Positions 15,239 through 64,000 of a DNA stretch of 64,000 nucleotides are shown in pieces. Below the pieces are notes generated by a model. It saw only the letters and a list, made by a program, of their open reading frames with translations. It searched no databases and was not told where the DNA came from. Position 1 is the stretch's first letter; each line of letters opens with the position of its first letter. Made by a program: the position numbers and the translations under genes. Origin of the DNA: a virus (lineage: Duplodnaviria; Heunggongvirae; Uroviricota; Caudoviricetes); IMG/VR virus record IMGVR_UViG_3300027896_000022, positions 17,954-81,953 of that record, one strand, 5' to 3'.

Positions 15239-15347
15239 AGTTTTTAATTTTTTAAAAAATTAAAAGTATTAAGAAGCCCTAAAAAAGTCATAATTATTAA
15301 TACTATAATGGCAATCCAATAAATGATGTCCCCTATTTTCATAAAAT

Positions 15348-24242: not shown

Positions 24243-24767
24243 ATGATTGATGAAAATTTTTTAAAGAAGATGTTTAATCTTCCGCAAGAAACCCATCCGG
24301 AAAAACTTTGGGTTTTGAAATATGTTCCTGCTGAAGCAAAAATTATTTACGACCTTGGTTGCGGATCAAAAAAGACTGTTGAAAATGCTATTGGGGTTGA
24401 TATTAAGCCAGGGTCGGACAAAGTGGCTAGTATGGATTTTTTGCCTTTTATTGAAAATCAGACGGTTGACATTGTTGTTTTTCGGCATTCTTTGGAACAC
24501 ATGCTTGATCCGGTGAAGACCCTGAAAGAATGGTGGCGAATTTTAAAGAATGATGGGAAGATAATTATTATTTTGCCTGATTCTACCGTTTTGAATACGA
24601 TGAATATAGCGATTAGCAGAGGACAGCATTTGCATGCTTATACGCCAGATAGTTTTAAATCTTTAATTTCTTTATTTCCAGAATTCTATTTGGAAAAAAT
24701 AGAAGTAGTGATAGACGAATGGAGTTTTGAAGCAGTCTTACAAAAAAAATATGACAAAAAAAACTGA
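24243..24767 (+). CDS. Class I SAM-dependent methyltransferase
   Basis: Motif I DLGCGSKK and motif post-II VVFRHSLEHMLDP. Confidence 0.6.
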   Translation: MIDENFLKKMFNLPQETHPEKLWVLKYVPAEAKIIYDLGCGSKKTVENAIGVDIKPGSDKVASMDFLPFIENQTVDIVVFRHSLEHMLDPVKTLKEWWRILKNDGKIIIILPDSTVLNTMNIAISRGQHLHAYTPDSFKSLISLFPEFYLEKIEVVIDEWSFEAVLQKKYDKKN

Positions 24768-27693
24768 ATTATGTAATTTGGCGTTTAAATATCATTCTGA
24801 CAAATGCCCGGCCTTGCTGCATGGCTACACCCCTTTTTATCACGAATTATTGAAAGACAAGAGGAATGATGTCAAGAAAGTGCTGGAAATAGGAATTGGC
24901 TGCCCTGAGACAATGGAAATTATTAAGGGATATAAAACCGGTGCCAGTTTGTTTATGTGGCGGGATTATTTTCCTAATGCCGAAATATTCGGGGTTGATA
25001 TTTTGGATTCAGCTTTAGTGAATGGGAACAGAATCAAATCTTTTAAGTGCGATCAAAGCAACAATACGGATCTTATTTCCTTGAAAGAAAAGATTGGCAA
25101 TGATTTTGATTTAATCGTTGATGATGGTTCTCACAAAGCTGAAGATCAGGTTTTTTCATTAATTTTTTTATTTCCTTGTGTCAAGGAAGGCGGAATCTAC
25201 GTGATTGAAGATATTAAAGACCTTGATAAATTAGTCGAATTTTTAAAGATAAATAATTATAATTATGAAGTGAAATTGCCGCCTAATCCGGTTAGTATTT
25301 ATGACAGAATGATAATAATAAAAAAAGAAGAAAAAAAGAAAATCACTTTGGCAATGACTTCCTGGCCTAAGAGCAAGGAAAGGATTGAGTATATTCGCCG
25401 GACAATTGAATCATTGGAAAAAAATCTTATTGTTCCAGGATTTGAAATAAAAAAAATATTGTCTTGCGAATCAGATCAGGTGTCTGAGGAAAACATAAAG
25501 AAAGTTGAATCTTTAGGATGGCCGGTTGTTTGGCGCCATGCCGCCCCCAGTCTGGGGATGCATTTTAATGATTTGTTTGGCTCATTGACGGGGATAGTAA
25601 TGCTGGTGGAAGACGATTGCTATTTGAGCATGCCGTTGAATATCACGCCGGGGATTGAACTTATTGAAAGCGGGCAGGAAGAAGTGGTTCGTTATTGGAC
25701 TTGCAATAATAATTTGCTGGTGAAAGAAGGCGTGCATTTTACTTACAAGGGGGATACTTTTGTCCATTTGGGCGAGTGCTTGCCAAATCAGTTTGTTGAT
25801 CGCCAGCTGTATTCTGACCGCCCTTTTTTGACTGACGTGAAGTTATGGAAAAGAATAGGCCAGTATAAGTCTTTTTCCCAGCATGAATTTGATATGGATT
25901 GGCGGTTTAAGGAATTTAAAGTTCAAGTTGCCGTCAGGCTTCCTTCCGTGTTTTGGCACATTGGAATAGATACTTTGTATAAAGGAAAAATATGGCCTGA
26001 TACTTATGATGTTTCAAAAAATACTATCGAAGGGATGATGTTGGATAATGAATTGCTCTGGCTTTTTAATACTGCGTTAGGGATGAATAGTTTCCTGGAA
26101 ATTGGTTCATGGATGGGGCGAAGCACTCACGCGATATTATCCGGTTGCCGGGGGAAAGTTCATTCGGTAGATCATTTTTTGGGTTCGGCTGATCCGATTG
26201 AAACTGGCAACAGAGATGTTTTTCCGCAATTTTTTAAGAATGTTGGTGCTTTTAATAATTTGATTATTCATAAAAAGTCAAGCCTGGAAGCGGCAAAAGA
26301 GTTTGAGGATGGTTCGCTTGATTGCGTGTTTATTGACGGCGGGCATCAATATCATGAAGTTGTTGAAGATATTAGGGCGTGGAAGCCGAAGGCCAGGAAG
26401 ATCCTTTGCGGCCATGATTATCAATCCGGCCCGGTCAGAAAATCGGTGGCTGACGAGCTTGGTGAAGTAAAGGTCTATGAAAGAATTTGGTGGGTGGAAC
26501 TGGAAAAGGAACCTGATGAAGAATTGCTGCCTGGTGTTTCTATTGTTATTCCGAATTTGGGCCGTCCAGAGAAATTAAAGGCTTGTCTTGAAGCCATTAA
26601 AAAAAATGCCGGTTATCCTGTGGACAAACATGAAGTGATAGTTCAGGATGATGATTTTAAAGATAGGCAAGGGGCCCCGAAAACCTTGATGGCTGGGGTT
26701 GCCAAGGCCAAGCATGATTTGATTATGTTTTTGGGGAACGACACTATTCCGAAAAAGTTTTTCTTATTGGAAGCGGTGAAGAAAATGTTGGAAGTCTTTC
26801 CTGACCAAGATGGTTTGGTCGGGTTGAATGATGAATTTTGGAATGGCGACCTGTCGGCTCATTGGCTGGTAAGCAAGAAGATTTTGAATAAATATTTTTG
26901 CACTGATTATCACCATATTTGCTGCGACAATGAATTGGTGGAAAGATGCAAATTGATGGGAAAATATACTTGGGCGGAAAGGGCGAAAATATATCATGAT
27001 CATCCTGAGGCTACGGGGAAGTCAGATGAAGTATACGCTTTGGGTTATGAAAAGAAAAAATGGGATGAAGATTTTGCCTTATGGAAGCAAAGAAGCGAAA
27101 AGCTTGGCTTTCCGATGAGGCATTATAGCAAGAAAGAAGTTATTCTTGGCGGCTTTACCCGTTATGACGTTAATTTAAAGCCTCGGATTATGAGCTTGGA
27201 TTGGTGCAAGAATATTGAAGATTATAAAGTTTTAAATGTAGGCGTTGGTGATGGTTCGGGTGGCCTTGCCAAGCAGCTTCCTATTTTAAAGTTTAAGCAG
27301 CTTAATCATTTGGATGTTGAAGAAAGTTATTTTTCTGCGGCTAAAAAATTAAAATGGGCGACAGAGAAAGTGAACTTTATTGCCGGAGATATCAGGGACT
27401 TTGACTTTAGCGATTATGATTTGGTTTTTTTGTTTGATATCTTAGAGCATTTGCCCAAGGAAGATAGTTTGAAGATTATTGAAAAATTGAAGAGAGCGAT
27501 CATTTTTATTCCGTTGGAAAAACATTTTAGGAAGAATCTTTGGGGCGTAAAAGCCCAGGATCATTTGTCTCTTTGGACTGAAGAAGATTTTAAGTCCAGG
27601 GGATTTAAGACTGAGATACTGCCTAATTTTCATCAGAATGAATTGAATGAGAAATTTCATGCCCTTTGGGCGACAAAATATGCCAAGCAATAA
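24727..27693 (+). CDS. 988-aa multidomain enzyme. It contains an O-methyltransferase-like domain (TylF/CmcI family), a second MTase of the same family, a GT2-like glycosyltransferase segment, and a C-terminal class I MTase.
   Basis: Key segments are VLEIGIGCPETM...DDGSHK; LEIGSWMGRSTHAILSGC...FIDGGHQYHEV...CGHDY; VSIVIPNLGRPEKLKACLEAI...VIVQDDD; and LNVGVGDGSG...LVFLFDILEHL. Confidence 0.55.
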   Translation: MKQSYKKNMTKKTELCNLAFKYHSDKCPALLHGYTPFYHELLKDKRNDVKKVLEIGIGCPETMEIIKGYKTGASLFMWRDYFPNAEIFGVDILDSALVNGNRIKSFKCDQSNNTDLISLKEKIGNDFDLIVDDGSHKAEDQVFSLIFLFPCVKEGGIYVIEDIKDLDKLVEFLKINNYNYEVKLPPNPVSIYDRMIIIKKEEKKKITLAMTSWPKSKERIEYIRRTIESLEKNLIVPGFEIKKILSCESDQVSEENIKKVESLGWPVVWRHAAPSLGMHFNDLFGSLTGIVMLVEDDCYLSMPLNITPGIELIESGQEEVVRYWTCNNNLLVKEGVHFTYKGDTFVHLGECLPNQFVDRQLYSDRPFLTDVKLWKRIGQYKSFSQHEFDMDWRFKEFKVQVAVRLPSVFWHIGIDTLYKGKIWPDTYDVSKNTIEGMMLDNELLWLFNTALGMNSFLEIGSWMGRSTHAILSGCRGKVHSVDHFLGSADPIETGNRDVFPQFFKNVGAFNNLIIHKKSSLEAAKEFEDGSLDCVFIDGGHQYHEVVEDIRAWKPKARKILCGHDYQSGPVRKSVADELGEVKVYERIWWVELEKEPDEELLPGVSIVIPNLGRPEKLKACLEAIKKNAGYPVDKHEVIVQDDDFKDRQGAPKTLMAGVAKAKHDLIMFLGNDTIPKKFFLLEAVKKMLEVFPDQDGLVGLNDEFWNGDLSAHWLVSKKILNKYFCTDYHHICCDNELVERCKLMGKYTWAERAKIYHDHPEATGKSDEVYALGYEKKKWDEDFALWKQRSEKLGFPMRHYSKKEVILGGFTRYDVNLKPRIMSLDWCKNIEDYKVLNVGVGDGSGGLAKQLPILKFKQLNHLDVEESYFSAAKKLKWATEKVNFIAGDIRDFDFSDYDLVFLFDILEHLPKEDSLKIIEKLKRAIIFIPLEKHFRKNLWGVKAQDHLSLWTEEDFKSRGFKTEILPNFHQNELNEKFHALWATKYAKQ

Positions 27694-28297
27694 AGAAATA
27701 TTTACCGCTTATTATTTGGAAAATCTTTGGGGTGATCCAATGTCTGTTTCTGGCCCGAGTTCGACTGTTGAGCATACGAGAGAGACTAGAAATATTATTA
27801 GTGTTTTAATTTGTTCATTAAAGATTAAGAAAATATTGGATGCGCCTTGCGGGGATTATAATTGGTTTAGGTTTGTGCATAAAAATAGTTCTGTTTCTTA
27901 TCTTGGGGCGGATATAGTTGAGCCGCTGATTGAAAAAAATAATATTTGGTATGGTGATTATAATACCAAATTTATCAAGCTGGATATTCTTGAAGACGTT
28001 TTGCCAAAGGCAGATTTGCTGATTTGCCGCGAATGTTTGCAGCATTTGCCGATGAAAGATTGTTTTAAGTTCTTTGAGAATTTTAAGAAAAGCGAGATAA
28101 AATATCTTTTAATAACTTCTTGGGACAGTGAAAAGAATGAAGATACGGTTGTAGGGGGGTTTAGAAGATTGGATTTATTAAAAAAACCTTTTGACTTTGA
28201 AGCACCGCTGGGGTCTTTTAAAGAATGGTCATGGCCGGGTCAGTCTGAGAAACGGCTGATTCTTTGGGAAAGAAAAAAAATGTTTAAAAAAATATGA
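27647..28297 (+). CDS. Class I SAM-dependent methyltransferase
   Basis: Contains LDAPCGDYNW...LLICRECLQHLP. It overlaps the upstream gene, which suggests coupling. Confidence 0.5.
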   Translation: MRNFMPFGRQNMPSNKEIFTAYYLENLWGDPMSVSGPSSTVEHTRETRNIISVLICSLKIKKILDAPCGDYNWFRFVHKNSSVSYLGADIVEPLIEKNNIWYGDYNTKFIKLDILEDVLPKADLLICRECLQHLPMKDCFKFFENFKKSEIKYLLITSWDSEKNEDTVVGGFRRLDLLKKPFDFEAPLGSFKEWSWPGQSEKRLILWERKKMFKKI

Positions 28298-29028
28298 GCA
28301 TTCCTAAAAATATTATGACAGTGTGGCTGACTTTTGATAATGGGCCTTTGCCGCCGCTGATTAAAAGATGCATTGAAAGCCAGAAGCTTCCGGGTTATAC
28401 ACAGAAAGTGATTACCTTGGAGAATTGCTATAAAGGTTCAAAGTATGTTAATAAGGCCTTAGAGAAAGCCAAGGCTTTACATGATGCCGGGAAGCCCATT
28501 ACAGGGCCTTGGGATAATCCTTTGACCTGGATAGTCAAGGCTTCTGATTGGCTTCGCTGTTATCATATCTGCGAGGAAGGCGGGATTTACCTTGATGCGG
28601 ATATGGAAGTTATTCCAGGGAAGAACTTTGATGATTTGCTGGATTGCCGGTTCTTTACGGAAATAGAAGCTTTCGGTATGCCGGCTAATTCTGCCTTTGG
28701 ATCGGAAGCGGGCCATCCTTTTTTAAAAGAATATCTTCCTAGAATTGAAGAGAATTTTTGTGGGGACGGGATAATGGTATTTGAACCGGGGGCCAGAGCG
28801 TTTGCCGATTTGATGTGGATTTATGACAAGGCCAAAAATGGGATAAAGATTTTTGATACTTCCATGTTTTTTCCTTATACTCATGGCAAAGAAATAATTA
28901 AAGTCACGCCGCAGACCAAGGTTTATCATCATTATGTCAATTCCTGGTGTGATGACCGGTGCAAGAAAAAGCTGGGGACAGAGTATGAAACCAAGGATTT
29001 TACGGAAATATTTAAAGGTAAAATATGA
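28294..29028 (+). CDS. Glycosyltransferase with a DXD sugar-binding region (GT32/Och1-like)
   Basis: Contains GGIYLDADMEVI. It has a 4-nt overlap with the upstream gene. Confidence 0.5.
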   Translation: MSIPKNIMTVWLTFDNGPLPPLIKRCIESQKLPGYTQKVITLENCYKGSKYVNKALEKAKALHDAGKPITGPWDNPLTWIVKASDWLRCYHICEEGGIYLDADMEVIPGKNFDDLLDCRFFTEIEAFGMPANSAFGSEAGHPFLKEYLPRIEENFCGDGIMVFEPGARAFADLMWIYDKAKNGIKIFDTSMFFPYTHGKEIIKVTPQTKVYHHYVNSWCDDRCKKKLGTEYETKDFTEIFKGKI

Positions 29029-29187
29029 TTAAATATTGTTTCTTAACAACTATCATCGTTGAGGTGGGCGTAAAAAATGCCTATGCGGGATAGAATTAAT
29101 CAATCTATTCTTAAGATTACATCGGTCGAGAGTCCGTCTGTGCCGAGGTTGATAACCATAAAGGCGAGCAGTGAAACATGATGGTAG

Positions 29188-29652
29188 TTGTTAGGAAATA
29201 ATTTAATTTATATGGAATATCCTGTTTTATTAAGAAAAGATAGTTTGCGTTGTAAATTGCTTGATGAGGATATTTTATATTTGAGAAAATTAAAAAAAAT
29301 AGGTTATTCTAATCAAAAAATAGCTAATATAATGAGATTATCCACTTTTACTGTTTGGTATTGGACAACTACTGGGAAAAATCGAGAATTATACTCAAAG
29401 AAAAAATACCAAAAAAATAAACCTTTTATAGATAAGGCATATCACCGACAAAAAGTTTATGAAAGCATTAAAAGAAAAAAGAAAATTCAAGGTAAAGAAT
29501 TTAAAAAATGGTTTAATGAAAGATTTGTTTTTCCTTTTTTAAAAAAGCCTGAATACATTAAAAAGAAAAAAGAATATTGGAATAAGAATAAAAAAAGACT
29601 TAACGAACAAAGAAGAAAAAAATATTGGAAAAATAAGAAAAAAATAATTTAA
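29188..29652 (+). CDS. Very basic Lys-rich protein with an N-terminal HTH-like segment
   Basis: Contains YSNQKIANIMRLSTFTVWYW, followed by KKKY/KNKKK-rich low complexity. Confidence 0.35.
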   Translation: MLGNNLIYMEYPVLLRKDSLRCKLLDEDILYLRKLKKIGYSNQKIANIMRLSTFTVWYWTTTGKNRELYSKKKYQKNKPFIDKAYHRQKVYESIKRKKKIQGKEFKKWFNERFVFPFLKKPEYIKKKKEYWNKNKKRLNEQRRKKYWKNKKKII

Positions 29653-29818
29653 TTTAAAATAAACTATGAAAAAAATTAAAAAGATTTATGCTATTTGCAA
29701 TGAATGTTCTAAACAATTATATCCTTCAGAGTGTTTTAAAAAAGGTAGAAATTCCTATTAACTGCCTTGAGTGCGGTCATTGGTTTTTTAAAGGAGTGGA
29801 TATAACTGAATAACTTAT

Positions 29819-30007
29819 ATGAAAATGATTAAAAATATAAATAAAAAAGTTAATTTTGATATTCATCCTGATGGAGATATTTTTGTTTGGAATAAAAAAA
29901 CAAAAAAATTTGAGTATATTGGCTTTATAGTAGATGAAGAAATTTGTTGTGTTAGCCCGGCTTTAAATCCAGTTGCCGACAGATTTTATAAAGCCTTAAA
30001 AAAATAA
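29819..30007 (+). CDS. Small hypothetical protein
   Basis: 62-aa ORF. Confidence 0.3.
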   Translation: MKMIKNINKKVNFDIHPDGDIFVWNKKTKKFEYIGFIVDEEICCVSPALNPVADRFYKALKK

Positions 30008-30014
30008 TTTCTAT

Positions 30015-30236
30015 ATGCAAGACAAAATAAAGGATATTCCTATGGGAATAAGTCAATGGAAAGAATATGGAAAGAAATATCAATATTGGGATTATTTTTT
30101 AGAAGAAATTGAAGAAGAAATATTATATTGGATTAATGATTGGAAAGCAGAAGGTCAGCCATATGGATTAATAGGATTAAAAAGAAAGATAAAAAAGATT
30201 TTTAAAAAACATCTATTATGGAAAATGAAGAAATAA
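30015..30236 (+). CDS. Small hypothetical protein
   Basis: 73-aa ORF. Confidence 0.3.
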   Translation: MQDKIKDIPMGISQWKEYGKKYQYWDYFLEEIEEEILYWINDWKAEGQPYGLIGLKRKIKKIFKKHLLWKMKK

Positions 30237-30384
30237 AAAAATGGTTAAAAAGGGAAATTGAAATTTGCGAAGAAGAAAGACAAAGTGCTATTAAAAGTGC
30301 TGAATCTGCAATAAATGTTAGAGATTATTACAGTAGAAGAGGAGAATTTCTTAATAAAATTTTAAATTTAATAGAATAATTTAT

Positions 30385-31566
30385 ATGGAAAATAATATGG
30401 AAAACGATCATTATGAAGGAAATAACATTCAGGGCTGGATGCAGCCGGTTGAGTTGGAGTTTCTCTATCAGGAGGCTAAGAAGGCCAATTCTGTCTTGGA
30501 AATCGGTTCCTGGAAGGGCAGAAGCACCCATGCGATACTTTCAGGGTGCAAAGGAATGGTCACCGCTGTGGACCATTTTAAGGGTTCAGCGCAATTAGGC
30601 GATGCCACGAATCAAATGGGCAAAGTGGAAGATGTTTATAAGCAGTTCATGGAAAATGTCGGGCATTTCAGCAATCTGAGGGTTATTAAGGCTACTTCAA
30701 GGGAAGCCAGAGTCCTTTTGAAAGATGAAAAGTTCGACATGATCTTCATTGATGGCGAACATAGTTATGAAGCGGTAAAGGAAGACATTGGCTTATGGCA
30801 GGGCAGGGCTAAAAAGATCCTTTGTGGCCATGATTATTGCCCCCCTTGGCCGCCAGTAATGCAGGCTGTTGATGAATCTATCGCCAAAGACGGGGTGGCT
30901 GGAAGTATTTGGTATAAATATGTCCAAGATGATTCTACAATTGAGCAATTTATTGATTTTATTAAAGAAAAAGAGAATTTTAGCTTTATTAAACGCGGGG
31001 ATGGAGAGGAATTCTGCATGTCCGGGATGGTAGGGCAGAATTGTGATGGACATAATTATAGCCCAATATTAGGGAAAGAATTGAAAAGAGCCTATGAATA
31101 CTTTGAATCCAGAGAGGATTGCTTTGTTCCTTTATTTCAAGATCAGAATTATTTTAATGCTCTTTTGCATCGAGTCGGCAAGAATAATGCCAAAGTGAAG
31201 GAATTTTATCAGGCGATTCGGGAAGACGGGCGTAAAAAGTTCTTTGTTGGCCCAGAAAGGCTGAAAATAGTGGCTAAGATATTAAAGGCTAAGCATATAA
31301 TTATTCCGGAAAAGAATGCTTTTGAGGAATATGGCGAGATTTCTGCCAAATTGAAGAAAGAAATTGGCAAAGACAAGGATGTCATAGTTTTGTTCAGCGC
31401 TGGAATGCCGGCCAAGGTTTTAATTGCGGAATGCCTAGAGAAAGACAATGGTATTACTTGCCTGGATTTGGGTTCTGCCTTTGATTCCTTGATCAAAGAA
31501 TCAAGAACTAATCAGATGCCAAGGGCCCAGATACTGGAATTGTATGCCGATTGGATTATGGAATAA
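30385..31566 (+). CDS. TylF/CmcI-family SAM-dependent methyltransferase. It is a paralog of the central domain of the 988-aa protein and has an unknown C-terminal domain.
   Basis: LEIGSWKGRSTHAILSGCKG...IFIDGEHSYEAV...CGHDY is nearly colinear with residues of ORF 24727-27693. Confidence 0.55.
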   Translation: MENNMENDHYEGNNIQGWMQPVELEFLYQEAKKANSVLEIGSWKGRSTHAILSGCKGMVTAVDHFKGSAQLGDATNQMGKVEDVYKQFMENVGHFSNLRVIKATSREARVLLKDEKFDMIFIDGEHSYEAVKEDIGLWQGRAKKILCGHDYCPPWPPVMQAVDESIAKDGVAGSIWYKYVQDDSTIEQFIDFIKEKENFSFIKRGDGEEFCMSGMVGQNCDGHNYSPILGKELKRAYEYFESREDCFVPLFQDQNYFNALLHRVGKNNAKVKEFYQAIREDGRKKFFVGPERLKIVAKILKAKHIIIPEKNAFEEYGEISAKLKKEIGKDKDVIVLFSAGMPAKVLIAECLEKDNGITCLDLGSAFDSLIKESRTNQMPRAQILELYADWIME

Positions 31567-36960: not shown

Positions 36961-36998
36961 ATTTTATTGGTTAGCCGTCTATTGCTAATCGGCTTTAG

Positions 36999-46186: not shown

Positions 46187-47614
46187 ATGAATGAAAAATT
46201 ATTAGAAAAATTGAAAGATCCAAAATTCTTTTTGGAAAATTTAGTTAAAATAAAAGGTAAAACGCCAGGGTTAATTCCGTTTATTCTAAATGAAGCCCAG
46301 AAAGATCTTTTTAATACATTAAGGAAACATAATCGCGTGATTATCTGCAAAGCCCGGCAGATTGGATTTAGCACAGCCGTTGTTGGTTATCTTTATTGGA
46401 AGACTCTTATGACTCCGGGAACAAATACTGCAATTATTGGTTATAATGCTCCATTGACGGCTGAACTTTTGGATAAAGTTAAGACTTTTTATAGAAGTAC
46501 TCCAGCAGATCTTCGTCCGGCCATCCATTATAATTCTAAAAGTGAAATTTCTTTTCCAAATATTGACAGTAAGATAATCGTTTTGCCATCTACTGAGAAT
46601 GTGGGCAGAGGATATACTCTTCATAACGTTTTGGCCACTGAATTATCAGCCTGGGAAAAAGCGGAAGATAAAATGATGTCTCTTGAAGCTTCTGTTCCGT
46701 TAGATGGGTTGATTGTGGTGGAAAGCACTCCTCGCGGGCAAGGAAATCTTTATCATAAGATGTTTATTGAAGAAAATGGTTATGCCAAGAAGGAATACGG
46801 TTGGTGGTGGGGATATACAGAGGAAGAGATTGAGACGATTAAAAAAAGAATGAACAATCCGATGCGTTTTGCTCAAGAATACGGATTGGAATTTCTTGCT
46901 TCTGGCAGATCTGTCTTTGATCAGAATGTTATCAGAAAACAAAGGAAGAATATTCTTAAGGTTGGTGACAAACATGGTGATTGGACGGTTATAGAAGAAA
47001 GAGGTTTGAGAATTTATTCTAACGTTGATCCTTCGGCTATGTATATTTTTGGGGTAGATACTTCAGAGGGCGTGGATGGAGGAGATTATTCTACTGCTAC
47101 TGTTTTCAACAGAACAAGCGGCGAAGAAGCGGCTTTTTATAAAGGATTGATTGAACCGGATAAGTTGGCGAAACTTTTGAATGAATGGGGGAGAAAATTT
47201 AATAATGCTTTAATGGTAGTTGAGGTTAACAATCATGGATTGACGACGTTAACCGTATTGAAACAATTGATGTATCCAACGCTTTATTTCAGGCAATCTC
47301 AATATGAGACGATTGGAGCTAAATATTCTGATAGATTGGGTTGGAAGACGACAAAGTTGACCAGACCTTTATTAATTGATGATTTATCCCAGGCGGTTAG
47401 AGAAGGTGTTCTGACTATTCATAGTAAGGAAACGTTGGATGAGATGTCGACTTTTATATATGACAAAAATAATAACATGGTTGCTTCTGGGACAACTCAT
47501 GATGACTGTATTTTTTCAGCAGCAATTTCTTTTCAGGGGTTTAAAGTTATGTGGGATAAGCCGTTAGATCAAATAAATTATGCAAATCATCTTCCGATGA
47601 GTACTAATTATTAA
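46187..47614 (+). CDS. Terminase large subunit
   Basis: Walker A-like KARQIGFSTAV, plus a C-terminal nuclease-like region with conserved acidic residues (DTSEG, HDDCIFS). Confidence 0.7.
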   Translation: MNEKLLEKLKDPKFFLENLVKIKGKTPGLIPFILNEAQKDLFNTLRKHNRVIICKARQIGFSTAVVGYLYWKTLMTPGTNTAIIGYNAPLTAELLDKVKTFYRSTPADLRPAIHYNSKSEISFPNIDSKIIVLPSTENVGRGYTLHNVLATELSAWEKAEDKMMSLEASVPLDGLIVVESTPRGQGNLYHKMFIEENGYAKKEYGWWWGYTEEEIETIKKRMNNPMRFAQEYGLEFLASGRSVFDQNVIRKQRKNILKVGDKHGDWTVIEERGLRIYSNVDPSAMYIFGVDTSEGVDGGDYSTATVFNRTSGEEAAFYKGLIEPDKLAKLLNEWGRKFNNALMVVEVNNHGLTTLTVLKQLMYPTLYFRQSQYETIGAKYSDRLGWKTTKLTRPLLIDDLSQAVREGVLTIHSKETLDEMSTFIYDKNNNMVASGTTHDDCIFSAAISFQGFKVMWDKPLDQINYANHLPMSTNY

Positions 47615-54124: not shown

Positions 54125-54352
54125 ATGCCTAATATTTATCCGTATTATAATGAGCCAACCCACGACCAGGGTAATGCCATTACATTAACGGCTCCAAATG
54201 CTGGGCGTACTTCCAAGACTGCGTCTGATGAGCAAAGGCTTATCGTCGATGCGGTTGACAAAATATTCTTACTCGAACCGAACAAGCATCCATTAGTTAC
54301 TCTTTTGACAAATGTCGGAAAAGTATACGATAAACAATTACTGTCGTATTAA
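54125..54352 (+). CDS. Major capsid protein exon 1. The ORF as called runs a few codons into the intron.
   Basis: It is followed by a group I intron. The capsid-like exon 2 continues at ~55380. Confidence 0.45.
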   Translation: MPNIYPYYNEPTHDQGNAITLTAPNAGRTSKTASDEQRLIVDAVDKIFLLEPNKHPLVTLLTNVGKVYDKQLLSY

Positions 54353-55385
54353 AATCGGGTTAATTCGGGGAAACTCTTTAGTAGACAATCCCGACCCAAG
54401 ATATTCAGGAATGAATATAAGGGCTAACGACTAATAGCATACCGCCAGAACGGCGATGAAGCTAACAAGAAATCCCGAAGCCAGAGATGGCTAAGATATA
54501 GTCTGAACATCATAGTGATATGATGAAACATAGGATAAAGAGCCTATGGTGATAACATTATAGGGTAAAGCTTGGAAAGGATCTTCCATGTTGAAAGCTT
54601 CAACTGGAAATCCGGAGTTTAAGTGGTTTTTTAGGCTTATATTAGCCGAGAATAAGTAATTCTTTGGACCACTATAAAATTAGCTATTTGCTGGAACACC
54701 CTAAAGGCTTGCGTACCATAGAAGAACATGATACAATGTAATCTATGGTAAAAATCTCAAGCATACAAAAAGTGGGCAATCAGCAGGTAACATCTACAAC
54801 TCTCGCATGGCTTGCGGGAATTTGGGATGGTGAAGGTACTTTTGGTATTTACGGATATCCTAATGGAAAAAAAAGAAGGATGTATTATTGTGGAAGAATG
54901 ACATTATCTAATACTTCTCCTTTAATGATTGATGAAATAATTAGGATTATGGAGTTGTTGGGAGTAAAAGTTGATGTTTGGAAAGAAAAAAAATCACGTA
55001 AAGAGAATCATAAAAAGGCCGTTCATCTTACATTAAATCGAATTGATTCAGTTAAAATGGTATGTGAATTATTAATTCCATACTTAGTTGCAAAAAAAGA
55101 TAGGGCAGAATTATTGTTAAAATTTCTTAATTCTCGTTTAACTTATAAAAGAAAAGTAAAACGAGATCCTGCCACAGGTCATATTCTTGGGGTTATTGAA
55201 CAAGGATATCCTAAAATAGATATTGCAATGTGGAAAAAAATGAGAGACTTGAATCAAGTAGGTATTGTTGTAGATGGTTCCTCAGAGACTACACGCTAAT
55301 CCTCTGGTAACAGAGTGATGATATAGTCCGAACTCACGCGAAATCGTGAGAGTTGTACAGAAATGATACAACCTCTTAATTGAGT
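54340..55385 (+). mobile_element. Group I self-splicing intron carrying a LAGLIDADG homing endonuclease ORF. The boundaries are approximate.
   Basis: Group I core elements are present: an R-like gggctaacgactaatagca at ~54420 and an S-like gatgatatagtccgaac at ~55318. The ~400-nt 5' part is structured and non-coding. It interrupts a capsid-like reading frame. Confidence 0.6.
54745..55299 (+). CDS. LAGLIDADG homing endonuclease, encoded within the intron
   Basis: Contains LAWLAGIWDGEGTFGIY, a single LAGLIDADG motif, and is a 184-aa basic protein. Confidence 0.7.
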   Translation: MVKISSIQKVGNQQVTSTTLAWLAGIWDGEGTFGIYGYPNGKKRRMYYCGRMTLSNTSPLMIDEIIRIMELLGVKVDVWKEKKSRKENHKKAVHLTLNRIDSVKMVCELLIPYLVAKKDRAELLLKFLNSRLTYKRKVKRDPATGHILGVIEQGYPKIDIAMWKKMRDLNQVGIVVDGSSETTR

Positions 55386-56390
55386 AACAAAAGCGAAGAC
55401 TATTACGGTGGAAGATACGCGCGCGTTGCAGCTGATTATGCAATTGGTGCAGCCTCATTTACTGTAACTGGAGCAGGTTCCAGTTCAGGTTACATATTTT
55501 CAATTGGTGATGTCGTTAAAAATGCCCGCACTGGTGAAAATATGTTGGTTACAGCTGTTGCTGCCAATACGATTACTATTACTAAAGCATTTGGTACTAC
55601 AGCTGATTCAGCTGGTTTAGCTGGCGATGGAATTTTCATCGTTGGTAATGCCAATGAAGAAAACTCGGGTGCTCGCAGTGTGAACTCCACACAGAGCACA
55701 CCGCAGACCAACTACACTCAGATATTTAAAACAACCATTGCTTTGTCTAACACTGAAAAGGAAGCCAATCTCTATGGAGGTAAAGACTTGCCTTATCAGA
55801 GAGCTAAGAAAGGCACTGAACATGCTTTGGATATTGAACGTGCATTTTGGTTTGGTCAGAAGAATTATGCCGCTGGCTTCAATGGCCCACAAGGCCATCC
55901 GAGACGCCAGACTGGTGGTGTTTTGGAATTCATTGAAGGGGGAAATTCCTATGTTCAGAATCAGGGTGGTGCTTTGACTGCTCCGGATTTGAACACTTTC
56001 TTGCGTGAAGGTTTCACTTATGGCAACTCTGAAAAGATGTTGTTCTGCGGTGGTTACGTCTTGCAAGCTATTAACGAAATTGCTCGTGGACAAATTTTGA
56101 TGAAACCGGTTGAGTCTACCTATGGGATGAAAATTTCTCAATGGGTGACCGCTTTCGGGACTGTCAATATTGTCCATAATCCGCTTTTTGTTGAAGAGTA
56201 CGCCGGTTATGCGTTCTTGCTGGATATGGAAAGCTTCAGATATCGCTTTATGAATAATCGCGATACTCAGTTGCAGACCAATATTCAAGCTCCGGATGCT
56301 GACGGCGAGGTGGATCAATACATCACTGAGTGCGGTCTTGAGAGAAAACAGTCTCCGAGACATGCTTTACTTAAGGGTGTCTTATCCTGA
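55380..56390 (+). CDS. Major capsid protein exon 2. The true exon start is a few nt downstream of 55380.
   Basis: 336-aa ORF following the intron. It is Gly/Thr/Asn-rich like capsid proteins, and its position follows the scaffold. Confidence 0.5.
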   Translation: MSNKSEDYYGGRYARVAADYAIGAASFTVTGAGSSSGYIFSIGDVVKNARTGENMLVTAVAANTITITKAFGTTADSAGLAGDGIFIVGNANEENSGARSVNSTQSTPQTNYTQIFKTTIALSNTEKEANLYGGKDLPYQRAKKGTEHALDIERAFWFGQKNYAAGFNGPQGHPRRQTGGVLEFIEGGNSYVQNQGGALTAPDLNTFLREGFTYGNSEKMLFCGGYVLQAINEIARGQILMKPVESTYGMKISQWVTAFGTVNIVHNPLFVEEYAGYAFLLDMESFRYRFMNNRDTQLQTNIQAPDADGEVDQYITECGLERKQSPRHALLKGVLS

Positions 56391-56545: not shown

Positions 56546-57280
56546 ATGCCAAGTTTAGAACAAATACGCACTCGCAAATATTTGACTAGAGGTGTTGTTG
56601 GCCAGGTATGCGCTGACAATTCTGTGATATTTACGATGCGTTATATTGGCGGTGGTACGGTTACTTCGGTAATTACAACTGCTGCTACTGACATAACAAT
56701 GGTAACGGTTGTTGGCACTACCACTTATACAGATGCTTATACTTGGGCTGCTTATAATACCGTTGAGAAATTAGTGGCTGCAATTAATGCTGATGGCAGA
56801 TTTGAAGCCAAAGTTATGGATTGTTTGTCCACGACAGCTACGGCTGCAAACTTTGTTATCGGTGCAACTTTAGCAGTAGATGCTAACGGTAATTATGATA
56901 TTTTGGGTGATACTAGCAATATTCTCTTTATGGCCTATCGTCTGACCTATGATCGGACTTTTAATACAAATGCAAAAGTTCGAGGAAGCCATAGAGTTGC
57001 CATTCAGGAAATAGTCACTACGTTGACTCTAGGTGGAGCTCATGTGAACACATTCAAGATTTATGAATGTACTCCTGGCGGTAATTCTGAGTCTTATCCT
57101 TCATCTGAAACTTTGATTTATCAAAAGTCTCCGGTGACTGGTACGACTTCAACTTTGAATTGGGCTAGCGGAAATAGTGAGATTACCAGCAATGAAGGCA
57201 ATGATTTATTGTTAGTCATTTCTGATAGCGTATCTTTTGGAGCTTCTGATGTTGTTACGGTTACTGGTAAAGCAGAATAG
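56546..57280 (+). CDS. Structural protein, paralog A
   Basis: It starts MPSLEQIRTRKYLTRGVVGQV and contains IGGGTVTSVITTAATDIT. Confidence 0.5.
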   Translation: MPSLEQIRTRKYLTRGVVGQVCADNSVIFTMRYIGGGTVTSVITTAATDITMVTVVGTTTYTDAYTWAAYNTVEKLVAAINADGRFEAKVMDCLSTTATAANFVIGATLAVDANGNYDILGDTSNILFMAYRLTYDRTFNTNAKVRGSHRVAIQEIVTTLTLGGAHVNTFKIYECTPGGNSESYPSSETLIYQKSPVTGTTSTLNWASGNSEITSNEGNDLLLVISDSVSFGASDVVTVTGKAE

Positions 57281-57429: not shown

Positions 57430-58170
57430 ATGCCAAGTTTAAACGAATCATACATCAGACATGAATTGACCAGAGGTGTTATTGGTCAAGTGCTTGATGA
57501 TGCGCCTGTATTATTTAAATTAAAGTATATTGGTGGTGGCACAGTTACTTCGGTAATTGTAACTGCTGCTACTGATATTACGTTAGTTTCATCCTATGCT
57601 GGCACTACCAGCACTGATGCTTTTCATTGGGCGGCTCCAGCAACTTATACTACCGTTCGTCTGATGGTTGATGCTATTAATAATACGGGAAGATGGGAAG
57701 CTAAAATCATGGATGCCTTATCTACTACTACTTTAGGTGCTAACTTAATGATAGGCGGGACCTTAGTAGTAAATGCTGATGGAGAATATGAAGTAGTGTC
57801 TGATACTAGTAATGCCAAATTTATGGCTTACAGATTGTCTTATGACAGAACTTTCAAGAATACCAGATCGTTAAGAAATGGTCATAGAGTAAGCATTAAA
57901 GAAATCGTCACTAATCTTACTTTGGGTGGTGGCGCTGACACAAATTCATTTAAGATTTATGAGTGTACTCCAGGTGGCAATACTGCACCTTATGGTGGAG
58001 CTGAAATTTTAGTTCTGCAAAGAACGCCGACCACTGGTAGTGCTGAAACTGTTACTTGGGCTTCGGGCAAAGGTAAAATTACTGCCGAAGAAGGTAATGA
58101 TTTATTAACTATCATTACTGATTCCGGTAGTATTACCGGCTCTATAACAGTTAATGGTGAATTAGAATAG
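57430..58170 (+). CDS. Structural protein, paralog B
   Basis: It starts MPSLNESYIRHELTRGVIGQV and is colinear with 56546-57280. Confidence 0.5.
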   Translation: MPSLNESYIRHELTRGVIGQVLDDAPVLFKLKYIGGGTVTSVIVTAATDITLVSSYAGTTSTDAFHWAAPATYTTVRLMVDAINNTGRWEAKIMDALSTTTLGANLMIGGTLVVNADGEYEVVSDTSNAKFMAYRLSYDRTFKNTRSLRNGHRVSIKEIVTNLTLGGGADTNSFKIYECTPGGNTAPYGGAEILVLQRTPTTGSAETVTWASGKGKITAEEGNDLLTIITDSGSITGSITVNGELE

Positions 58171-58900: not shown

Positions 58901-59455
58901 ATGACTAATTTTGTATATGACCCGAAGAGACAAGGGTACGACACAAATCTTTTCAAGACTTTGGTTGGAGTTCCAGCAGTAGTAGGTAATCATGTAATTT
59001 TAAATGCTACTGAAATAGTTGGTTATGCGGATATGTACGGATGTGACTTGACGATGCGTTTAATTATTCCAGCTGCACCTAAAGCTGGTGATGTTCGCCA
59101 ATTTGGTCTTGCAAGCGCTGCTTTTGGATCTTTGATAGTATTTGATATTACTGATGCTGTTTTTTCTATTTTGGCGACAAACGAACAAGGAGACACAAAA
59201 AGTGAAGTAGTGACATTTGATGCAGCATGGGCTGCCACTCCAGTTGATTTTGAAATCAGATGGAGAGGTACTTATGCTGATTTTTTAATTAGGGGAATAA
59301 ATGTTGTTACACCAGCAAATGTTTACGGTGCAACATATAGAATTACGGATGTGGCTATTCCGAAAGGTCCTTTAAGCATGTATTTTTTGAATGGGGTTGC
59401 TGATAATATGGAAATTGTTTCTATTAATGGAAAAAATATTCAAACATTTATATAA
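58901..59455 (+). CDS. Hypothetical structural-module protein
   Basis: 184-aa ORF. Confidence 0.45.
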   Translation: MTNFVYDPKRQGYDTNLFKTLVGVPAVVGNHVILNATEIVGYADMYGCDLTMRLIIPAAPKAGDVRQFGLASAAFGSLIVFDITDAVFSILATNEQGDTKSEVVTFDAAWAATPVDFEIRWRGTYADFLIRGINVVTPANVYGATYRITDVAIPKGPLSMYFLNGVADNMEIVSINGKNIQTFI

Positions 59456-59472: not shown

Positions 59473-62400
59473 ATGTCTTTACCTATTTATGTTCCGATAG
59501 CAGCCCCGGGAGGTGTAGGTGGTTCTACTGGTTATACAGGTTACACTGGTTACACTGGTGATGCCGGATCAGCAACTGATACTGGTGCTACCGGTTACAC
59601 TGGTTATACTGGTTACACTGGTTACACTGGTGATCCAGGAGCGGCAACTAATACCGGTGCCACTGGCTACACTGGTTATATTGGTGATACTGGTTACACT
59701 GGTTATACTGGTGCTGGTGCTTTTACGGGCGCTACTGGTTACACTGGCTACACTGGTAGAACAGGTTATACGGGTTATACAGGTTATACAGGTGATGCTG
59801 GTAATATAGGTCACACTGGTTACACTGGCCCTACTGGTTACACTGGCTATACTGGAGAAGGAGCTTTCACTGGTTATACTGGCTACACGAGTTATACTGG
59901 TTATACCGGTTATACTGGTGATGCTGGATCGGCGACTGATACAGGTGCTACCGGCTACACTGGTGCTACTGGTTACACTGGTTACACTGGTGCTGGTGGT
60001 TTTACTGGTTATACTGGTTACACAGGTGCTGGTGCTTTTACTGGTTATACAGGTTACACTGGTCCTCTTGGTGCTACTGGTGATACGGGCAATAAAGGAA
60101 ATCAAGGTCCTACTGGTTTTACTGGTTTTACTGGTTACACTGGTTATACTGGAGTAGGTGCTTTTACTGGTTATACTGGTTATACTGGATATACTGGTTA
60201 CACAGGAGATACTGGTTATACAGGTTATACTGGTTATACTGGTGCTGGTGCTTTTACTGGTTATACTGGCTACACCGGTGAAACAGGTTATACTGGCTAC
60301 ACTGGCTATACTGGTGATACAGGTGCTGGTGCTTTTACAGGATATACTGGATATACTGGTGAAACAGGTTATACTGGCTACACTGGTTATACTGGTGATA
60401 CAGGTGCTGGTGCTTTCACGGGATATACGGGATATACTGGTGACACTGGTGATATCGGAGATCAAGGTGACACTGGTTACACTGGTTATACAGGTTACAT
60501 TGGTTACACTGGCTACACTGGTGACACTGGAGATCAAGGTGATACAGGCTACACTGGTGACACTGGAGATATTGGCTATACTGGCTACACTGGTGACACT
60601 GGAGATCAAGGTGATACAGGCTACACTGGTGACACTGGAGATATTGGCTATACTGGCTATACTGGAGACACTGGAGATAAAGGTGATACAGGCTACACTG
60701 GTGACACAGGTGACATAGGTTATACTGGTTACACTGGTTATACTGGATATGGTGACACTGGATATACAGGTGATACAGGTGATACAGGAAATCAAGGTGA
60801 TACTGGTTACACTGGTTATACTGGATATACAGGTGATACAGGTGATACAGGAAATCAAGGTGATACTGGTTACACTGGTTATACTGGATATACAGGTGAT
60901 ACAGGTGATACAGGAAATCAAGGTGATACTGGTTACACTGGTTACACTGGTTATACAGGTGACACTGGTGATACGGGAAATCAAGGTGATACTGGTTACA
61001 CTGGTTATACTGGATATACAGGTGATACAGGTGATACAGGAAATCAAGGTGATACTGGTTACACCGGTTACACTGGTTATACAGGTGACACTGGTGATAC
61101 GGGAAATCAAGGTGATACTGGTGACACCGGAGACCAAGGTGACACAGGCTATACTGGCTACACTGGCTATACTGGATATGGCGACACTGGCTATACTGGT
61201 GACACTGGAGATCAAGGTTCTACTGGTTATACTGGCTACACTGGATATGGCGACACTGGCTATACTGGTTACACTGGTTATACTGGTGATAAAGGAGATG
61301 CAGCACTTACTGGTGCCACTGGTTACACTGGCTATGTTGGTTATACTGGTGATACTGGAGATCCAGGATCAGCAACTGATACTGGTGCCACAGGCTATAC
61401 TGGTTATACTGGTGATACTGGTTACACTGGCTATATAGGTTATACAGGCTTTACGGGTTATACTGGTTATACAGGTGATACCGGTGCTGGTGCTTTTACG
61501 GGTTATACAGGTTATACAGGTCGTACAGGATATACTGGCTATACTGGTTATACAGGTGCTGGTGCTTTTACTGGTTACACAGGTTATACAGGTGATACAG
61601 GTTATACTGGTTACACTGGTCGCACTGGCTATACGGGTTATACTGGTTATACTGGTACTACGGGATATACTGGTAGAACTGGTTATACAGGTTACACGGG
61701 TTATACTGGCTATACAGGTTATACCGGTGCTGGTGCTTTTACAGGCTATACTGGTTATACTGGTACTACAGGATATACTGGATATAGTGGTTATACTGGT
61801 ACTACCGGATATACTGGTTATACTGGTCCTGGTGCTTACACTGGCTACACTGGATACACTGGATATACTGGTTATACTGGTCCTGGTGCTTATACTGGCT
61901 ATACTGGATACACTGGATATACTGGTTATACTGGTGCTGGTGCTTATACTGGTTATACTGGATATAGTGGTTACACTGGTACTACAGGATATACGGGATA
62001 TACTGGTTATACTGGTGCAGGAGCTTTTACTGGCTACACTGGTTATAGTGGTTACACTGGTCCCACAGGTTACACTGGCTACACTGGTCGCACTGGCTAC
62101 ACTGGTACTACTGGTTATACTGGTTATACAGGTACTGGTGCTTTTACTGGATATACTGGATATACTGGTGGAACAGGTTATACTGGTTATACTGGACCAG
62201 GTGCTTACACAGGTTACACGGGTTATACTGGCTATACAGGTTATACTGGAGGAACTGGTGCTGGTGCCTTTACGGGTTATACTGGTTATACTGGCTACAC
62301 TGGTTACACTGGCTATACGGGTGCTGGTGCTTACACTGGCTACACTGGTTACACGGGTTATACGGGCCGCACAGGTTATACTGGTTACACGGGTTATACA

Positions 62401-62982
62401 GGTGATGCTGGTAACGTAGGCCATACGGGTTATACAGGTTATACAGGTACTACAGGTTATACAGGCTACACTGGTATTGGAGTTACTGGCTACACTGGTT
62501 ATACTGGACCTCAAATATTAACTACTTCAACAACGACGAACTTAACTGGTTTCATAAAAGGAAACGGGTCTGTTCTTAGTGCTGATAATACAACTTATGC
62601 ACCATTAGCTTCTCCTGTTTTTACCGGGAAAGCGACTATGAGTGGGAGTGATACAATTGGTAATATTTATAATCCTGATACTGGAGCTAAAAATGTTACG
62701 ATAGATTGTTCTACCCATAATATGCATATTGTTAATGGCCATACGGATGGAACGGCTATCACCTTCTTAGTGTCTAATGCCACTAATAATCAAGTATTCA
62801 TTGTTTCTGTTCTTCAAGGATCTGGAACAGTTTCAACGATTTCAGGATGGTTTGCTACAGTTAGATGGGTAGGAGGAACTACTCCAACTCTTACGGCAAC
62901 TCTTAATAAAAGAGATACTTTTGGATTTATTAGAACAGGTACAAATACTTATGATGGGTTTATAATCGGGCAAAATTGTTAA
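59473..62982 (+). CDS. Collagen-like Gly-X-Y repeat fiber protein of 1169 aa, with a C-terminal ~155-aa non-repetitive beta-rich domain. It is a candidate tail fiber or receptor-binding protein.
   Basis: About 1000 residues are uninterrupted G-X-Y triplets, mostly G-Y-T, with G-D-T, G-A-G and G-N-Q also present. The non-collagen C-terminus begins [21 protein letters not shown]. Confidence 0.7.
60760..61140 (+). repeat. Six near-identical tandem 63-nt repeats inside the collagen-like gene, each encoding [21 protein letters not shown]
   Basis: Direct reading shows ggttacactggttatactggatatacaggtgatacaggtgatacaggaaatcaaggtgatact repeated with 0-3 substitutions. Confidence 0.8.
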
Positions 62983-63018: not shown

Positions 63019-64000
63019 ATGAATTTAAAACCAAATTTTAGTGTTTGTTTTATTGGCCGCAATGAAGGTGCGGTATTGCAAAAAGCTCTTGATTCTTTAA
63101 AAGATTTTAAAGAGAAAGGCGGTGAAATATGCCTTCTTTCTACGGGAAGCACTGATAACACTGTCCAAATAGCCAAAGATTTTGGATGTAAAACTGAAGA
63201 AGTTGGTTCTAAGTTCATGATGACATTGACGAAAGAGCAGGCAGAAGGGATCAATAAGACATTTTTAGTTGAAGAGGAAGAACCGATAGTAAAAGAAGGC
63301 GGAAAGTTGTTTGATTTTGCTTCAGCCAGAAATTATTGTGCTGATAATTTGGCTACAAACGATATGGTGGCCTGGCTGGATTGCGATGAGGCTTATACGG
63401 CACTTAATGTAGAGGCAATTTGCAAGCTTATTGATGAAGGTATTGAACAATTTGAATATCAATTTGTCTTTTCACACGATTGGGCGAATAATCCGCTTTT
63501 GCAATTTGTTCAAAGCAAATTTTACAATAAGAAAAAGATGAAATGGACAGGAGTTGTCCATGAAGTGATAAGTGGCGGTGGAAAAAGGCAATATTTGACA
63601 GAAGATGTGTTAAAAAATGAACATTGGCAAAATGGCGGGACAAATAGGGCCGGTTATCTTGTAGGTTTGGCATTGGATTGTTATGAAAATCAAGGGAAAG
63701 ACAGACAAAGTCATTATTTTGCCCGTGAATTGATGTGGCATGATAGGCCCAAGTCTGCTATCAAGGAATTTGAACGTTATTTAAAAATATCTTGGTGGAA
63801 ACCAGAAAGAAGCCAATCGATGGTTTACATTGGTGATTGTTATAAGAAGTTAGGGGAACCAGAAAAGGCTGTGGAATGGTATCATAAGGCTTTTCAAGAA
63901 GAATCTGCCCGCAGAGAGCCGTTGATTAAATTGGCTGAATATTATAATACCAAAAAAGACTTGCAAAGAATCATTTGTTATTGTAAAGCGGCCTTGGAAA
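63019..64000 (+). CDS. Family-2 glycosyltransferase with C-terminal TPR-like region. It is partial and continues beyond the window.
   Basis: The ATG at 63019 opens a frame that runs to the window end. The N-terminal SVCFIGRNEGAVLQKALDSL...LSTGSTDNT is a GT2 signature and DCDE is DXD-like. It is absent from the ORF track because no stop falls within the window. Confidence 0.55.
   Translation, partial: MNLKPNFSVCFIGRNEGAVLQKALDSLKDFKEKGGEICLLSTGSTDNTVQIAKDFGCKTEEVGSKFMMTLTKEQAEGINKTFLVEEEEPIVKEGGKLFDFASARNYCADNLATNDMVAWLDCDEAYTALNVEAICKLIDEGIEQFEYQFVFSHDWANNPLLQFVQSKFYNKKKMKWTGVVHEVISGGGKRQYLTEDVLKNEHWQNGGTNRAGYLVGLALDCYENQGKDRQSHYFARELMWHDRPKSAIKEFERYLKISWWKPERSQSMVYIGDCYKKLGEPEKAVEWYHKAFQEESARREPLIKLAEYYNTKKDLQRIICYCKAALE

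Follow-up and report, generated by a model that had tools for sequence, protein, structure and literature searches.

Collagen-like fibres of phages and glycosylated collagen-like spore proteins of bacteria are each already known. In bacterial collagens, the commonest residue at the X position of the Gly-X-Y triplet is proline and the commonest at the Y position is threonine (PMC8968730). In C. difficile, the glycosyltransferase SgtA adds beta-O-GlcNAc to the threonines of the GPT collagen repeats in BclA3; SgtA is composed of a GT-A domain (residues 1-260) and tetratricopeptide repeats (TPR; residues 262-358), and its gene adjoins bclA3 (PMC7157674). Here, we describe a locus of related organization in a 64,000-nucleotide (nt) stretch of DNA from a tailed phage (IMG/VR record IMGVR_UViG_3300027896_000022, positions 17,954 to 81,953; this whole stretch is referred to as the window). 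It contains an open reading frame (ORF) of 1169 amino acids (aa) that is made up mostly of Gly-Tyr-Thr (GYT) triplets, followed by a gene for a glycosyltransferase of the GT2 type with TPR. Judging from the sequence and by analogy with the systems compared below, we consider it on balance probable that this ORF is a structural gene of an uncultured phage of ~88 kb and encodes a trimeric virion fibre of variable length, O-glycosylated on threonine.

The resemblance to the BclA3/SgtA pair lies in the long G-X-Thr collagen-like region, with threonine at 79% of the Y positions, in a short segment at the N-terminus and a globular portion at the C-terminus, and in the adjoining GT-A/GT2 and TPR gene, the last being a likeness to the published architecture of SgtA and to its gene adjacency only. 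Unlike BclA3, the window protein is encoded by a phage, is not a spore protein, and has tyrosine rather than proline at X; similarly, the phage enzyme differs from SgtA by its larger size (586 aa) and by a second GT2-like region. BclA3 is a glycoprotein of the exosporium and is related to the BclA family of Bacillus. The C-terminal domain of BclA adopts a C1q/TNF-like fold, whereas that of the phage protein is a different, uncharacterised beta-sandwich. The number of repeats in BclA varies.

The association of a virus-encoded collagen with a virus-encoded modifying glycosyltransferase, together with a low proline content, is also found in the Mimivirus proteins L71/L230 (PMC9614988). However, L230, a hydroxylase/glucosyltransferase, glucosylates hydroxylysine, whereas only 3 lysines occupy Y positions in the window protein and the neighbouring enzyme belongs to the GT2 + TPR family. 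No lysyl-hydroxylase domain was detected among the window ORFs scanned against Pfam, a set that did not include every small ORF, and the locus does not fit an L71/L230-type assignment, in which a PLOD-like/GT25-like enzyme modifies lysine at Y. In mycobacteriophages, virion glycosylation concerns capsid and tail-tube subunits (Freeman 2023, cited in PMC12619734). There, as is proposed here, enzymes encoded by the phage are presumed to add sugars to components of the virion; in contrast to the window protein, their targets are the C-termini of capsid and tail-tube proteins and not a collagen-like repeat.

Collagen-like fibres of phages and prophages, such as those of the E. coli O157 prophages (PMC3368898) and of S-CAM7, likewise place a Gly-X-Y shaft between fibre modules and follow a trimeric logic. 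However, these fibres have no GYT triplets, their collagen is usually much shorter, and they possess N-terminal attachment domains, whereas in the window only 13 residues precede the repeats. S-CAM7 is an isolated cyanophage, whose 'tail fiber protein' (1400 aa; KU686213.1, 171446-175648; L200 among the contigs and loci that we designate by L numbers) is built of GAT, GST, and GLT triplets, with 0 GYT. Its gene also stands directly after a glycosyltransferase gene and near sugar-metabolism genes, with neighbours annotated as CDP-4-keto-6-deoxyglucose 3-dehydrase and family 11 glycosyltransferase. The S-CAM7 glycosyltransferase has no significant BLASTP match to the window enzyme and is unrelated to it. 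S-CAM7 is a possible cultured model for fibre glycosylation.

The GYT reading frame is real, since it continues in frame into a C-terminal domain with thousands of homologues. In a Pfam scan, PF01391 (Collagen) matched the protein in eight stretches (E = 2.2e-107), and Tandem Repeats Finder reported a period of 9 nt with 333 copies at positions 59520-62507. The uninterrupted Gly-X-Y runs, of which the longest has 47 triplets, comprise 305 triplets, including 164 GYT, 41 GDT, 13 GAG, 8 GAT, 7 GNQ, and 5 GDA. Within these runs, X is tyrosine in 174 triplets and proline in only 8, while Y is threonine in 240 and lysine in 3; the complete protein has only 17 prolines, and charged pairs are scarce outside the GDT blocks. 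A register walk through residues 14-1014 found 311 triplets that begin with glycine (53% GYT), 24 triplets that lack it but are in register, and four 1-residue deletions (G-Y-G or G-I-G). Glycine therefore starts 93% of the 335 in-register triplets, and the register survives the 24 Gly-less ones, 18 of which are A-F/Y-T after GxG. This recurring break, G-x-G-A-[F/Y]-T, has alanine at the place of glycine and glycine at the preceding Y, and its 18 sites include residues 83, 131, 188, 230, and 260; a similar pattern (G.G[AN][FY]T) was present in only 9 of the 129 other GYT ORFs examined.

These counts agree with a preliminary description of the window, which had reported a 1169-aa, mostly G-Y-T ORF. 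The same description had regarded a minus-strand ORF at 59569-61215 as spurious; this ORF exists (548 aa) and is a low-complexity S/I/T reading of the fibre repeat, as are the long ORFs in other frames. The view that Tyr-rich triplets are atypical is valid with respect to the literature, in which proline prevails at X (PMC8968730), but not with respect to viral metagenomes, in which runs of GYT are frequently encountered. The protein belongs to a known kind, that of collagen-like phage fibres, and its length is not exceptional, contrary to what had been stated: GYT-type ORFs in IMG/VR reach 2761 aa from stop to stop (402 GYT; L085), and incomplete ones are longer.

Tyrosine at X is reportedly among the residues least favourable for a triple helix. 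Together with the near absence of proline (17 of 1169 residues) and the paucity of charged pairs outside the GDT blocks, this raises the question of whether the GYT region forms a polyglycine II or polyproline II bundle, beta-structure, or a disordered segment instead of a collagen triple helix. We consider this very improbable, as glycine follows a strict period of 3 across 1000 residues, with interruptions that keep the register, and the Pfam Collagen score is very high. In addition, threonine at Y is the typical bacterial solution (PMC8968730), and the same repeat is attached to known fibre modules in many viruses.

The collagen-like region is of uneven age. GYT is spelled by 18 different 9-mers, which implies an array that is for the most part ancient and preserved by constraint on the protein; recent amplification is limited to its centre. 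There, the 63-nt units beginning at 60760, 60823, 60886, 60949, and 61012 have 0, 0, 1, 4, and 2 mismatches relative to the first, and a sixth unit (61075) has diverged in its last 18 nt, which encode GDTGDQ. The array is genuine, although the earlier count of six units with 0-3 mismatches was slightly generous with respect to units four and six. Further near-exact blocks occur at lags of 72 nt (60499-60678), 54 nt (61807-61964), and 81 nt (60274-60419).

The copy number of the central array differs between assemblies of the same phage. In a second assembly, L202, the flanks are 100% identical to the window over 5 kb upstream and 1 kb downstream, while the fibre gene encodes 1085 aa and is without the 252 nt (4 x 63) at window positions 60757-61008; the sole further difference in the gene is a single-nucleotide polymorphism (SNP) at 61775. 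The contig L203 stops within the array, at the equivalent of window position 60857, and the contigs L204 and L205 also stop inside the fibre gene, L205 originating from a relative in which the 184-aa protein encoded upstream of the fibre is 80% identical. The nearest IMG/VR relative, L025, likewise stops inside the gene. In a second lineage (184-aa protein 56% identical), one sample has a homologous GYT gene of 890 aa and two others have one of 874 aa, and the samples differ by one 48-nt in-frame indel and at most two SNPs. An identical-sequence look-up of the 1169-aa protein yielded no match, which is consistent with a copy number that differs in other assemblies. Both length variation and assembly trouble, which the preliminary description had predicted, are therefore observed at this locus.

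It is possible, though we doubt it, that the gene is real but its number of units, and hence the length of 1169 aa, is partly a product of assembly and untrue for any one genome. In line with this, the only differences between the window and L202, both assembled from the same phage, are precisely four units and one SNP, and three contigs stop inside the gene. Units 1 and 2 are identical and unit 3 is one base off, so that together they form a near-exact repeat of ~190 nt, which is above k = 141 (a value of k inferred from contig names only). However, the window copies carry unit-specific differences (0, 0, 1, 4, and 2 mismatches), which would allow an assembler to thread most of them, and in the second lineage two independent samples agree while the third is off by one clean in-frame unit, a picture that looks like population polymorphism. 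Each individual case may reflect either population polymorphism or assembler collapse.

The case for glycosylation comes from the neighbouring gene. A 36-nt spacer on the same strand separates the fibre stop codon from the glycosyltransferase gene; no terminator-like site was found in this spacer, the promoter and terminator scans being at chance level. Pfam recognizes Glycos_transf_2 at residues 8-55 and TPR at residues 269-307 of the enzyme, and a DXD-like motif (DCD) is visible in its sequence. In L202, which extends beyond the 3' end of the window, the full enzyme (13867-15627) has 586 aa and comprises GT2, TPR, and the second GT2-like region. The same contig (13867-20555) carries, in order, the glycosyltransferase, a 174-aa gene, a 425-aa GYT collagen with 31 GYT, a 274-aa gene, and another GYT collagen with 98 GYT and a length of at least 754 aa. 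The glycosyltransferase gene of this phage is thus flanked by three GYT collagen genes.

The association between enzyme and repeat was examined in both directions. In the forward direction, 119 IMG/VR stretches were fetched, with short flanks, solely by a DNA pattern of five consecutive GYT codons (GYTx5), and the window enzyme fragment was compared by phmmer with all of their ORFs (1.06 Mb). This gave 11 homologues, seven of them with E between 1e-49 and 1e-116; 10 were inspected, and each of these has a GYT ORF no more than ~3.3 kb away, the C-terminal domains of those ORFs being different. By contrast with these stretches, phmmer found no enzyme homologue in 332 kb of other fibre loci. In the reverse direction, seven contigs were selected only for the presence of a homologue and for contig size, and in six of them (L194, L195 with two ORFs, L196, L198, L199, and L209) a GYT-containing collagen-like ORF lies within 3.4 kb. 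The homologues appeared via phmmer; a peptide-pattern search for relatives with the enzyme, or with a 246-aa protein of the window, as single query returned none. In a large protein collection, the enzyme family has 242 members at E <= 1e-10, of either ~380 aa (GT2 + TPR) or ~560-573 aa with an added Methyltransf_24.

The N-terminus of one homologue (P0083) matches a solved chain named GmaR (E = 3.7e-6), which we take to be the flagellin O-GlcNAc transferase of Listeria. In the literature searched, nothing relevant was found on a collagen-like protein combined with a TPR glycosyltransferase in a phage. The hint to glycosylation that the preliminary description had seen in the neighbouring glycosyltransferase genes is strongly supported by this comparative genomics. 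From the gene neighbourhood and the SgtA and GmaR precedents, we infer that the adjacent enzyme would O-glycosylate the threonines of the repeat.

The window contains, in addition, a cluster of methyltransferase and glycosyltransferase genes that encodes a 174-aa methyltransferase, a 988-aa protein that combines a GT2 with three methyltransferase domains, a 216-aa methyltransferase, a 244-aa Gly_transf_sug/Caps_synth glycosyltransferase, and a 393-aa protein with Methyltransf_24 and GT-D. In L195-L198, Methyltransf_24, Gly_transf_sug/Caps_synth, and an extra GT2 are fused to, or adjoin, the GT2-TPR homologues. The window cluster may elaborate the fibre glycan, and its inclusion in the system is tentative.

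Several observations weigh against a glycosylated fibre of variable length. The enzyme homologue occurs in only 11 of the 119 GYT stretches (with their short flanks), with no giant-virus bin among them, and it is thus not an obligatory partner of GYT collagen; conversely, L197 carries a homologue and has no GYT gene within 10 kb. The positive contigs may all come from one broad phage clade, since L194, L195, and L209 carry SU10-type genes, and common descent then makes the association look stronger than it is. Assembler collapse, and not biology, could account for the difference in length between assemblies, as the names of the contigs point to short-read de Bruijn assembly and the array has two neighbouring 63-nt units without any mismatch. 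To these are added the unfavourable tyrosine at X and the fact that the fibre is without the ~145-aa N-terminal domain that is common to its two downstream paralogues and the L194 fibre, which leaves its attachment unexplained.

Part of this evidence would suit an unmodified collagen-like tail fibre, with a GT2-TPR enzyme that acts elsewhere (on the host envelope or receptor, on another virion protein, or on a polysaccharide) and travels with fibre genes only by way of a mobile 'host-interaction' cassette. The 108 stretches that show no homologue in the fetched DNA and the enzyme of L197 that has no GYT gene nearby are compatible with this explanation, as is the filing of the enzyme family in PHROGs under 'moron/auxiliary, beta-1,4-glycosyltransferase'. 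Moreover, the literature describes many collagen-like phage fibres for which no modification is known (PMC3368898), and glycosylation of virion proteins other than collagens is documented (Freeman 2023, cited in PMC12619734). We nevertheless judge this explanation unlikely. A GYT gene lies within 3.4 kb in six of the seven blind-chosen contexts, where the gene order varies and the fibre C-termini are not the same; SgtA, which O-glycosylates a protein, is likewise built as GT-A + TPR (PMC7157674); and threonine at 79% of the Y positions amounts to hundreds of acceptor sites.

More generally, GYTx5 was found in at least 119 IMG/VR stretches, and 15 of the 80 contigs listed are giant-virus bins. 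In a set of bacteria and archaea with one genome per species, it was present in only 48 stretches, many of them on short contigs of metagenome-assembled genomes. The N- and C-terminal modules of GYT proteins are diverse. From this census, the window protein is a mid-sized member of a mainly viral, modular class. A blastn search with the repeat retrieved only cyanophage fibres of the GAT/GST type and a short archaeal-virus tail protein, and no mention of GYT repeats in collagen-like phage proteins was found in the literature searched. GYT chemistry is widespread in uncultured viruses and apparently undescribed.

A broader proposal, which we put forward only tentatively and hold to be less probable than not by some distance, is that GYT collagen and a dedicated SgtA-like GT2-TPR enzyme constitute a widespread, undescribed, virus-encoded 'glyco-collagen' system. 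In such a system, the TPR arm may read the repeat itself, and methyltransferases and additional glycosyltransferases would often be joined to the enzyme or encoded beside it. The heavily O-glycosylated, tyrosine-lined helix may be the functional surface, either as a sugar-binding or sugar-mimicking adhesin or as a length-tuned shield, and the interchangeable C-terminal knob may be mainly a folding nucleus.

Beyond the collagen-like region, the protein ends in 155 non-repetitive residues. An AlphaFold2 (AF2) model built from 33 homologues has a predicted local distance difference test score (pLDDT) above 90 for the last ~109 residues (model residues 47-155), which form a nine-strand beta-sandwich, as expected from the beta-rich end that had been described earlier; the model is that of a monomer. 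In a profile search of 1.84 billion cluster representatives, 10,394 proteins matched at E <= 1e-3, 479 of them even at E <= 1e-30, and in 150 of the 150 matches listed the domain ends at the last residue. Related sequences in 24 IMG/VR loci cap very unlike shafts, such as a 1408-aa GAT/GVS/GPS collagen (L009), a 461-aa GYT collagen (L017), and a 1153-aa beta-helix-like protein (L011), as well as many short proteins. Annotated tail fibres have domains akin to it: the domain matches PHROG 9017, 'tail fiber protein', at 9e-7, and 160 predicted viral structures in BFVD match at E <= 1e-3, a large share of which bear the name of tail fibre or collagen-repeat protein. No model in Pfam or NCBIfam matches the domain, and sequence searches of the PDB with it identified no solved structure.

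The C-terminal domain of the window protein was not found in any of the 119 GYTx5 stretches, which indicates that GYT shaft and knob are independent modules. Its strong conservation and fixed C-terminal place are no less compatible with a nucleus for trimerisation or folding than with a variable receptor binder. From its sequence and model, the domain is proposed to be a distal knob that acts as trimerisation or folding nucleus; a role as receptor-binding tip is plausible.

At the opposite end, the 13 residues ahead of the repeats leave no room for an N-terminal docking domain. A short P-x-A-x-P motif is retained at this place in four lineages, as VPIAAP in the window, NPMAGP in L205, RPLASP in L206, and RPQASP in L025. 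A gene of the 184-aa family directly precedes the fibre gene in L025, L026, L205, and L206 as well as in the window, and in L194 the 184-aa homologue is fused to a 200-aa extension. Possible roles of the 184-aa protein are those of anchor, lectin, and assembly factor. A programmed frameshift joining the 184-aa ORF to the fibre ORF was considered and rejected, since the frame offsets differ among the window, L025, and L026.

A different placement on the particle is also conceivable. The protein could be a head or collar appendage and not a tail fibre, anchored near the capsid, perhaps via the lectin-fold protein, and its task would then be to adhere loosely to particles, mucus, or cell surfaces or to act as a shield, and not to be the primary receptor binder. 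We regard a head or collar position as a serious possibility that nonetheless falls well short of probable.

For the virion fibre that we favour, the following assembly is proposed. Three chains would associate via the conserved C-terminal beta-sandwich, and the ~1000-residue Gly-X-Y region would then zip into a collagen-type triple helix with the knob distal. The rise of a triple helix is 0.286 nm per residue, so a continuous helix would measure about 286 nm and the thin fibre roughly 260-290 nm. For its anchoring, we favour the N-terminal P-x-A-x-P peptide, possibly bound to the upstream lectin-fold protein. With this fibre included, at least three GYT collagen-like fibre proteins have their genes grouped around a single glycosyltransferase gene. 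The TPR part of this enzyme would hold the repetitive substrate while a sugar is O-linked to threonine at Y, and further phage methyltransferases and glycosyltransferases may extend this sugar. The glycan would offset the poor triple-helix propensity of tyrosine and cover a very aromatic surface. Finally, the length of the fibre would shift by gain or loss of 63-nt units, each worth 21 residues or ~6 nm, probably through slippage or recombination in the near-identical central array.

The source of the window is an uncultured tailed phage of ~88 kb with portal and capsid genes of the SU10 type, and the same phage is present on contigs of 87-88 kb in public assemblies. It has no close relatives among isolated phages, the best identity of its major capsid protein (MCP) being ~30%. 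The terminase, portal, and MCP genes lie 3-13 kb upstream of the fibre gene on the same strand, which places the latter in the structural module (Table 1); in one relative, the SU10 adaptor is found downstream of the equivalent cluster.

Table 1. Position of the fibre gene, its parts, and associated genes in the window.
Feature	Coordinates	Strand	Basis or remark
GYT collagen-like fibre gene	59473..62982, stop included	+	1169 aa, ATG start; Pfam Collagen and in-frame C-terminal domain
N-terminal peptide, 13 residues, nothing else before the collagen region	59473..59511	+	Sequence
Collagen-like region, residues 14-1014	59512..62514	+	Triplet counts, register walk, Tandem Repeats Finder
Tandem array of 63-nt units, 21 residues each	60760..61137	+	Five copies nearly identical, the sixth diverged
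C-terminal non-repetitive region, residues 1015-1169	62515..62979	+	AF2 model, homologue searches
Folded beta-sandwich core (predicted), ~residues 1061-1169	62653-62979	+	AF2 model
Glycosyltransferase gene, GT2 then TPR repeats	63019..64000, past window end	+	Pfam Glycos_transf_2 and TPR
184-aa protein gene, concanavalin-A / GH16-like jelly-roll fold	58901..59455	+	Ends 17 nt before the fibre gene
179-aa gene between the 244/246-aa paralogues and the 184-aa gene		+	ORF list
Methyltransferase and glycosyltransferase cluster	24243..31566	+	Pfam scans
Large terminase	46187-47614	+	Upstream of the fibre gene
SU10/P22-type portal	49653-51854	+	Upstream of the fibre gene
SU10-type major capsid gene	55380-56390	+	Upstream of the fibre gene

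Other genes of the window deserve mention. The major capsid gene is in three pieces within 54125-56390 (+): in relatives, the MCP is uninterrupted (419-423 aa), and its alignment covers 54125-54337, 54534-54629, and 55395-56387. With 61.6 bits, a score that exceeds the gathering threshold, Rfam detects a group I intron at 54297-54525, and a weaker match lies at 55060-55350 (29.6 bits); an ORF for a LAGLIDADG homing endonuclease (54745-55299) lies inside the second intervening sequence. Directly after the capsid gene, on the + strand, stand tandem paralogues of 244 aa (56546-57280) and 246 aa (57430-58170), for which no family match was found; this gene is single-copy in L194, L205, and L206. 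On the minus strand, in otherwise plus-strand surroundings, a phiEco32-like COOH-NH2 ligase (552 aa) adjoins a glutamine-amidotransferase-like protein (363 aa) at 35869-38657. The phage also has genes of its own that encode RecA (Pfam E = 6e-102), a fusion of primase-polymerase and DnaB-type helicase, an SNF2-type helicase, and an SMC/RecF-like ATPase, at coordinates 22048-23091 and 19864-21600 (+) and 12280-14019 and 5755-7881 (-).

With regard to known phage fibres and spore collagens, the new points are the tyrosine-rich GYT chemistry and its recurrent pairing with a GT2-TPR enzyme of the SgtA type, a pairing that makes fibre glycosylation a directly testable hypothesis. Two big families are without a curated model, namely the always-C-terminal fibre domain (~10,000 representatives) and the lectin-fold partner protein. 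For short-read viromes, the locus is a warning that such genes get mis-assembled or truncated, and the clean 4 x 63-nt difference between otherwise identical genomes offers a natural example of fibre-length tuning. If the proposed modification is true, it would explain how a stable triple helix arises from a proline-poor, tyrosine-rich sequence, which is relevant to designed bacterial collagens. A phage that combines the repeat protein with an SgtA-type enzyme, in an arrangement that recurs in many uncultured viruses, would extend virion glycosylation to fibres.

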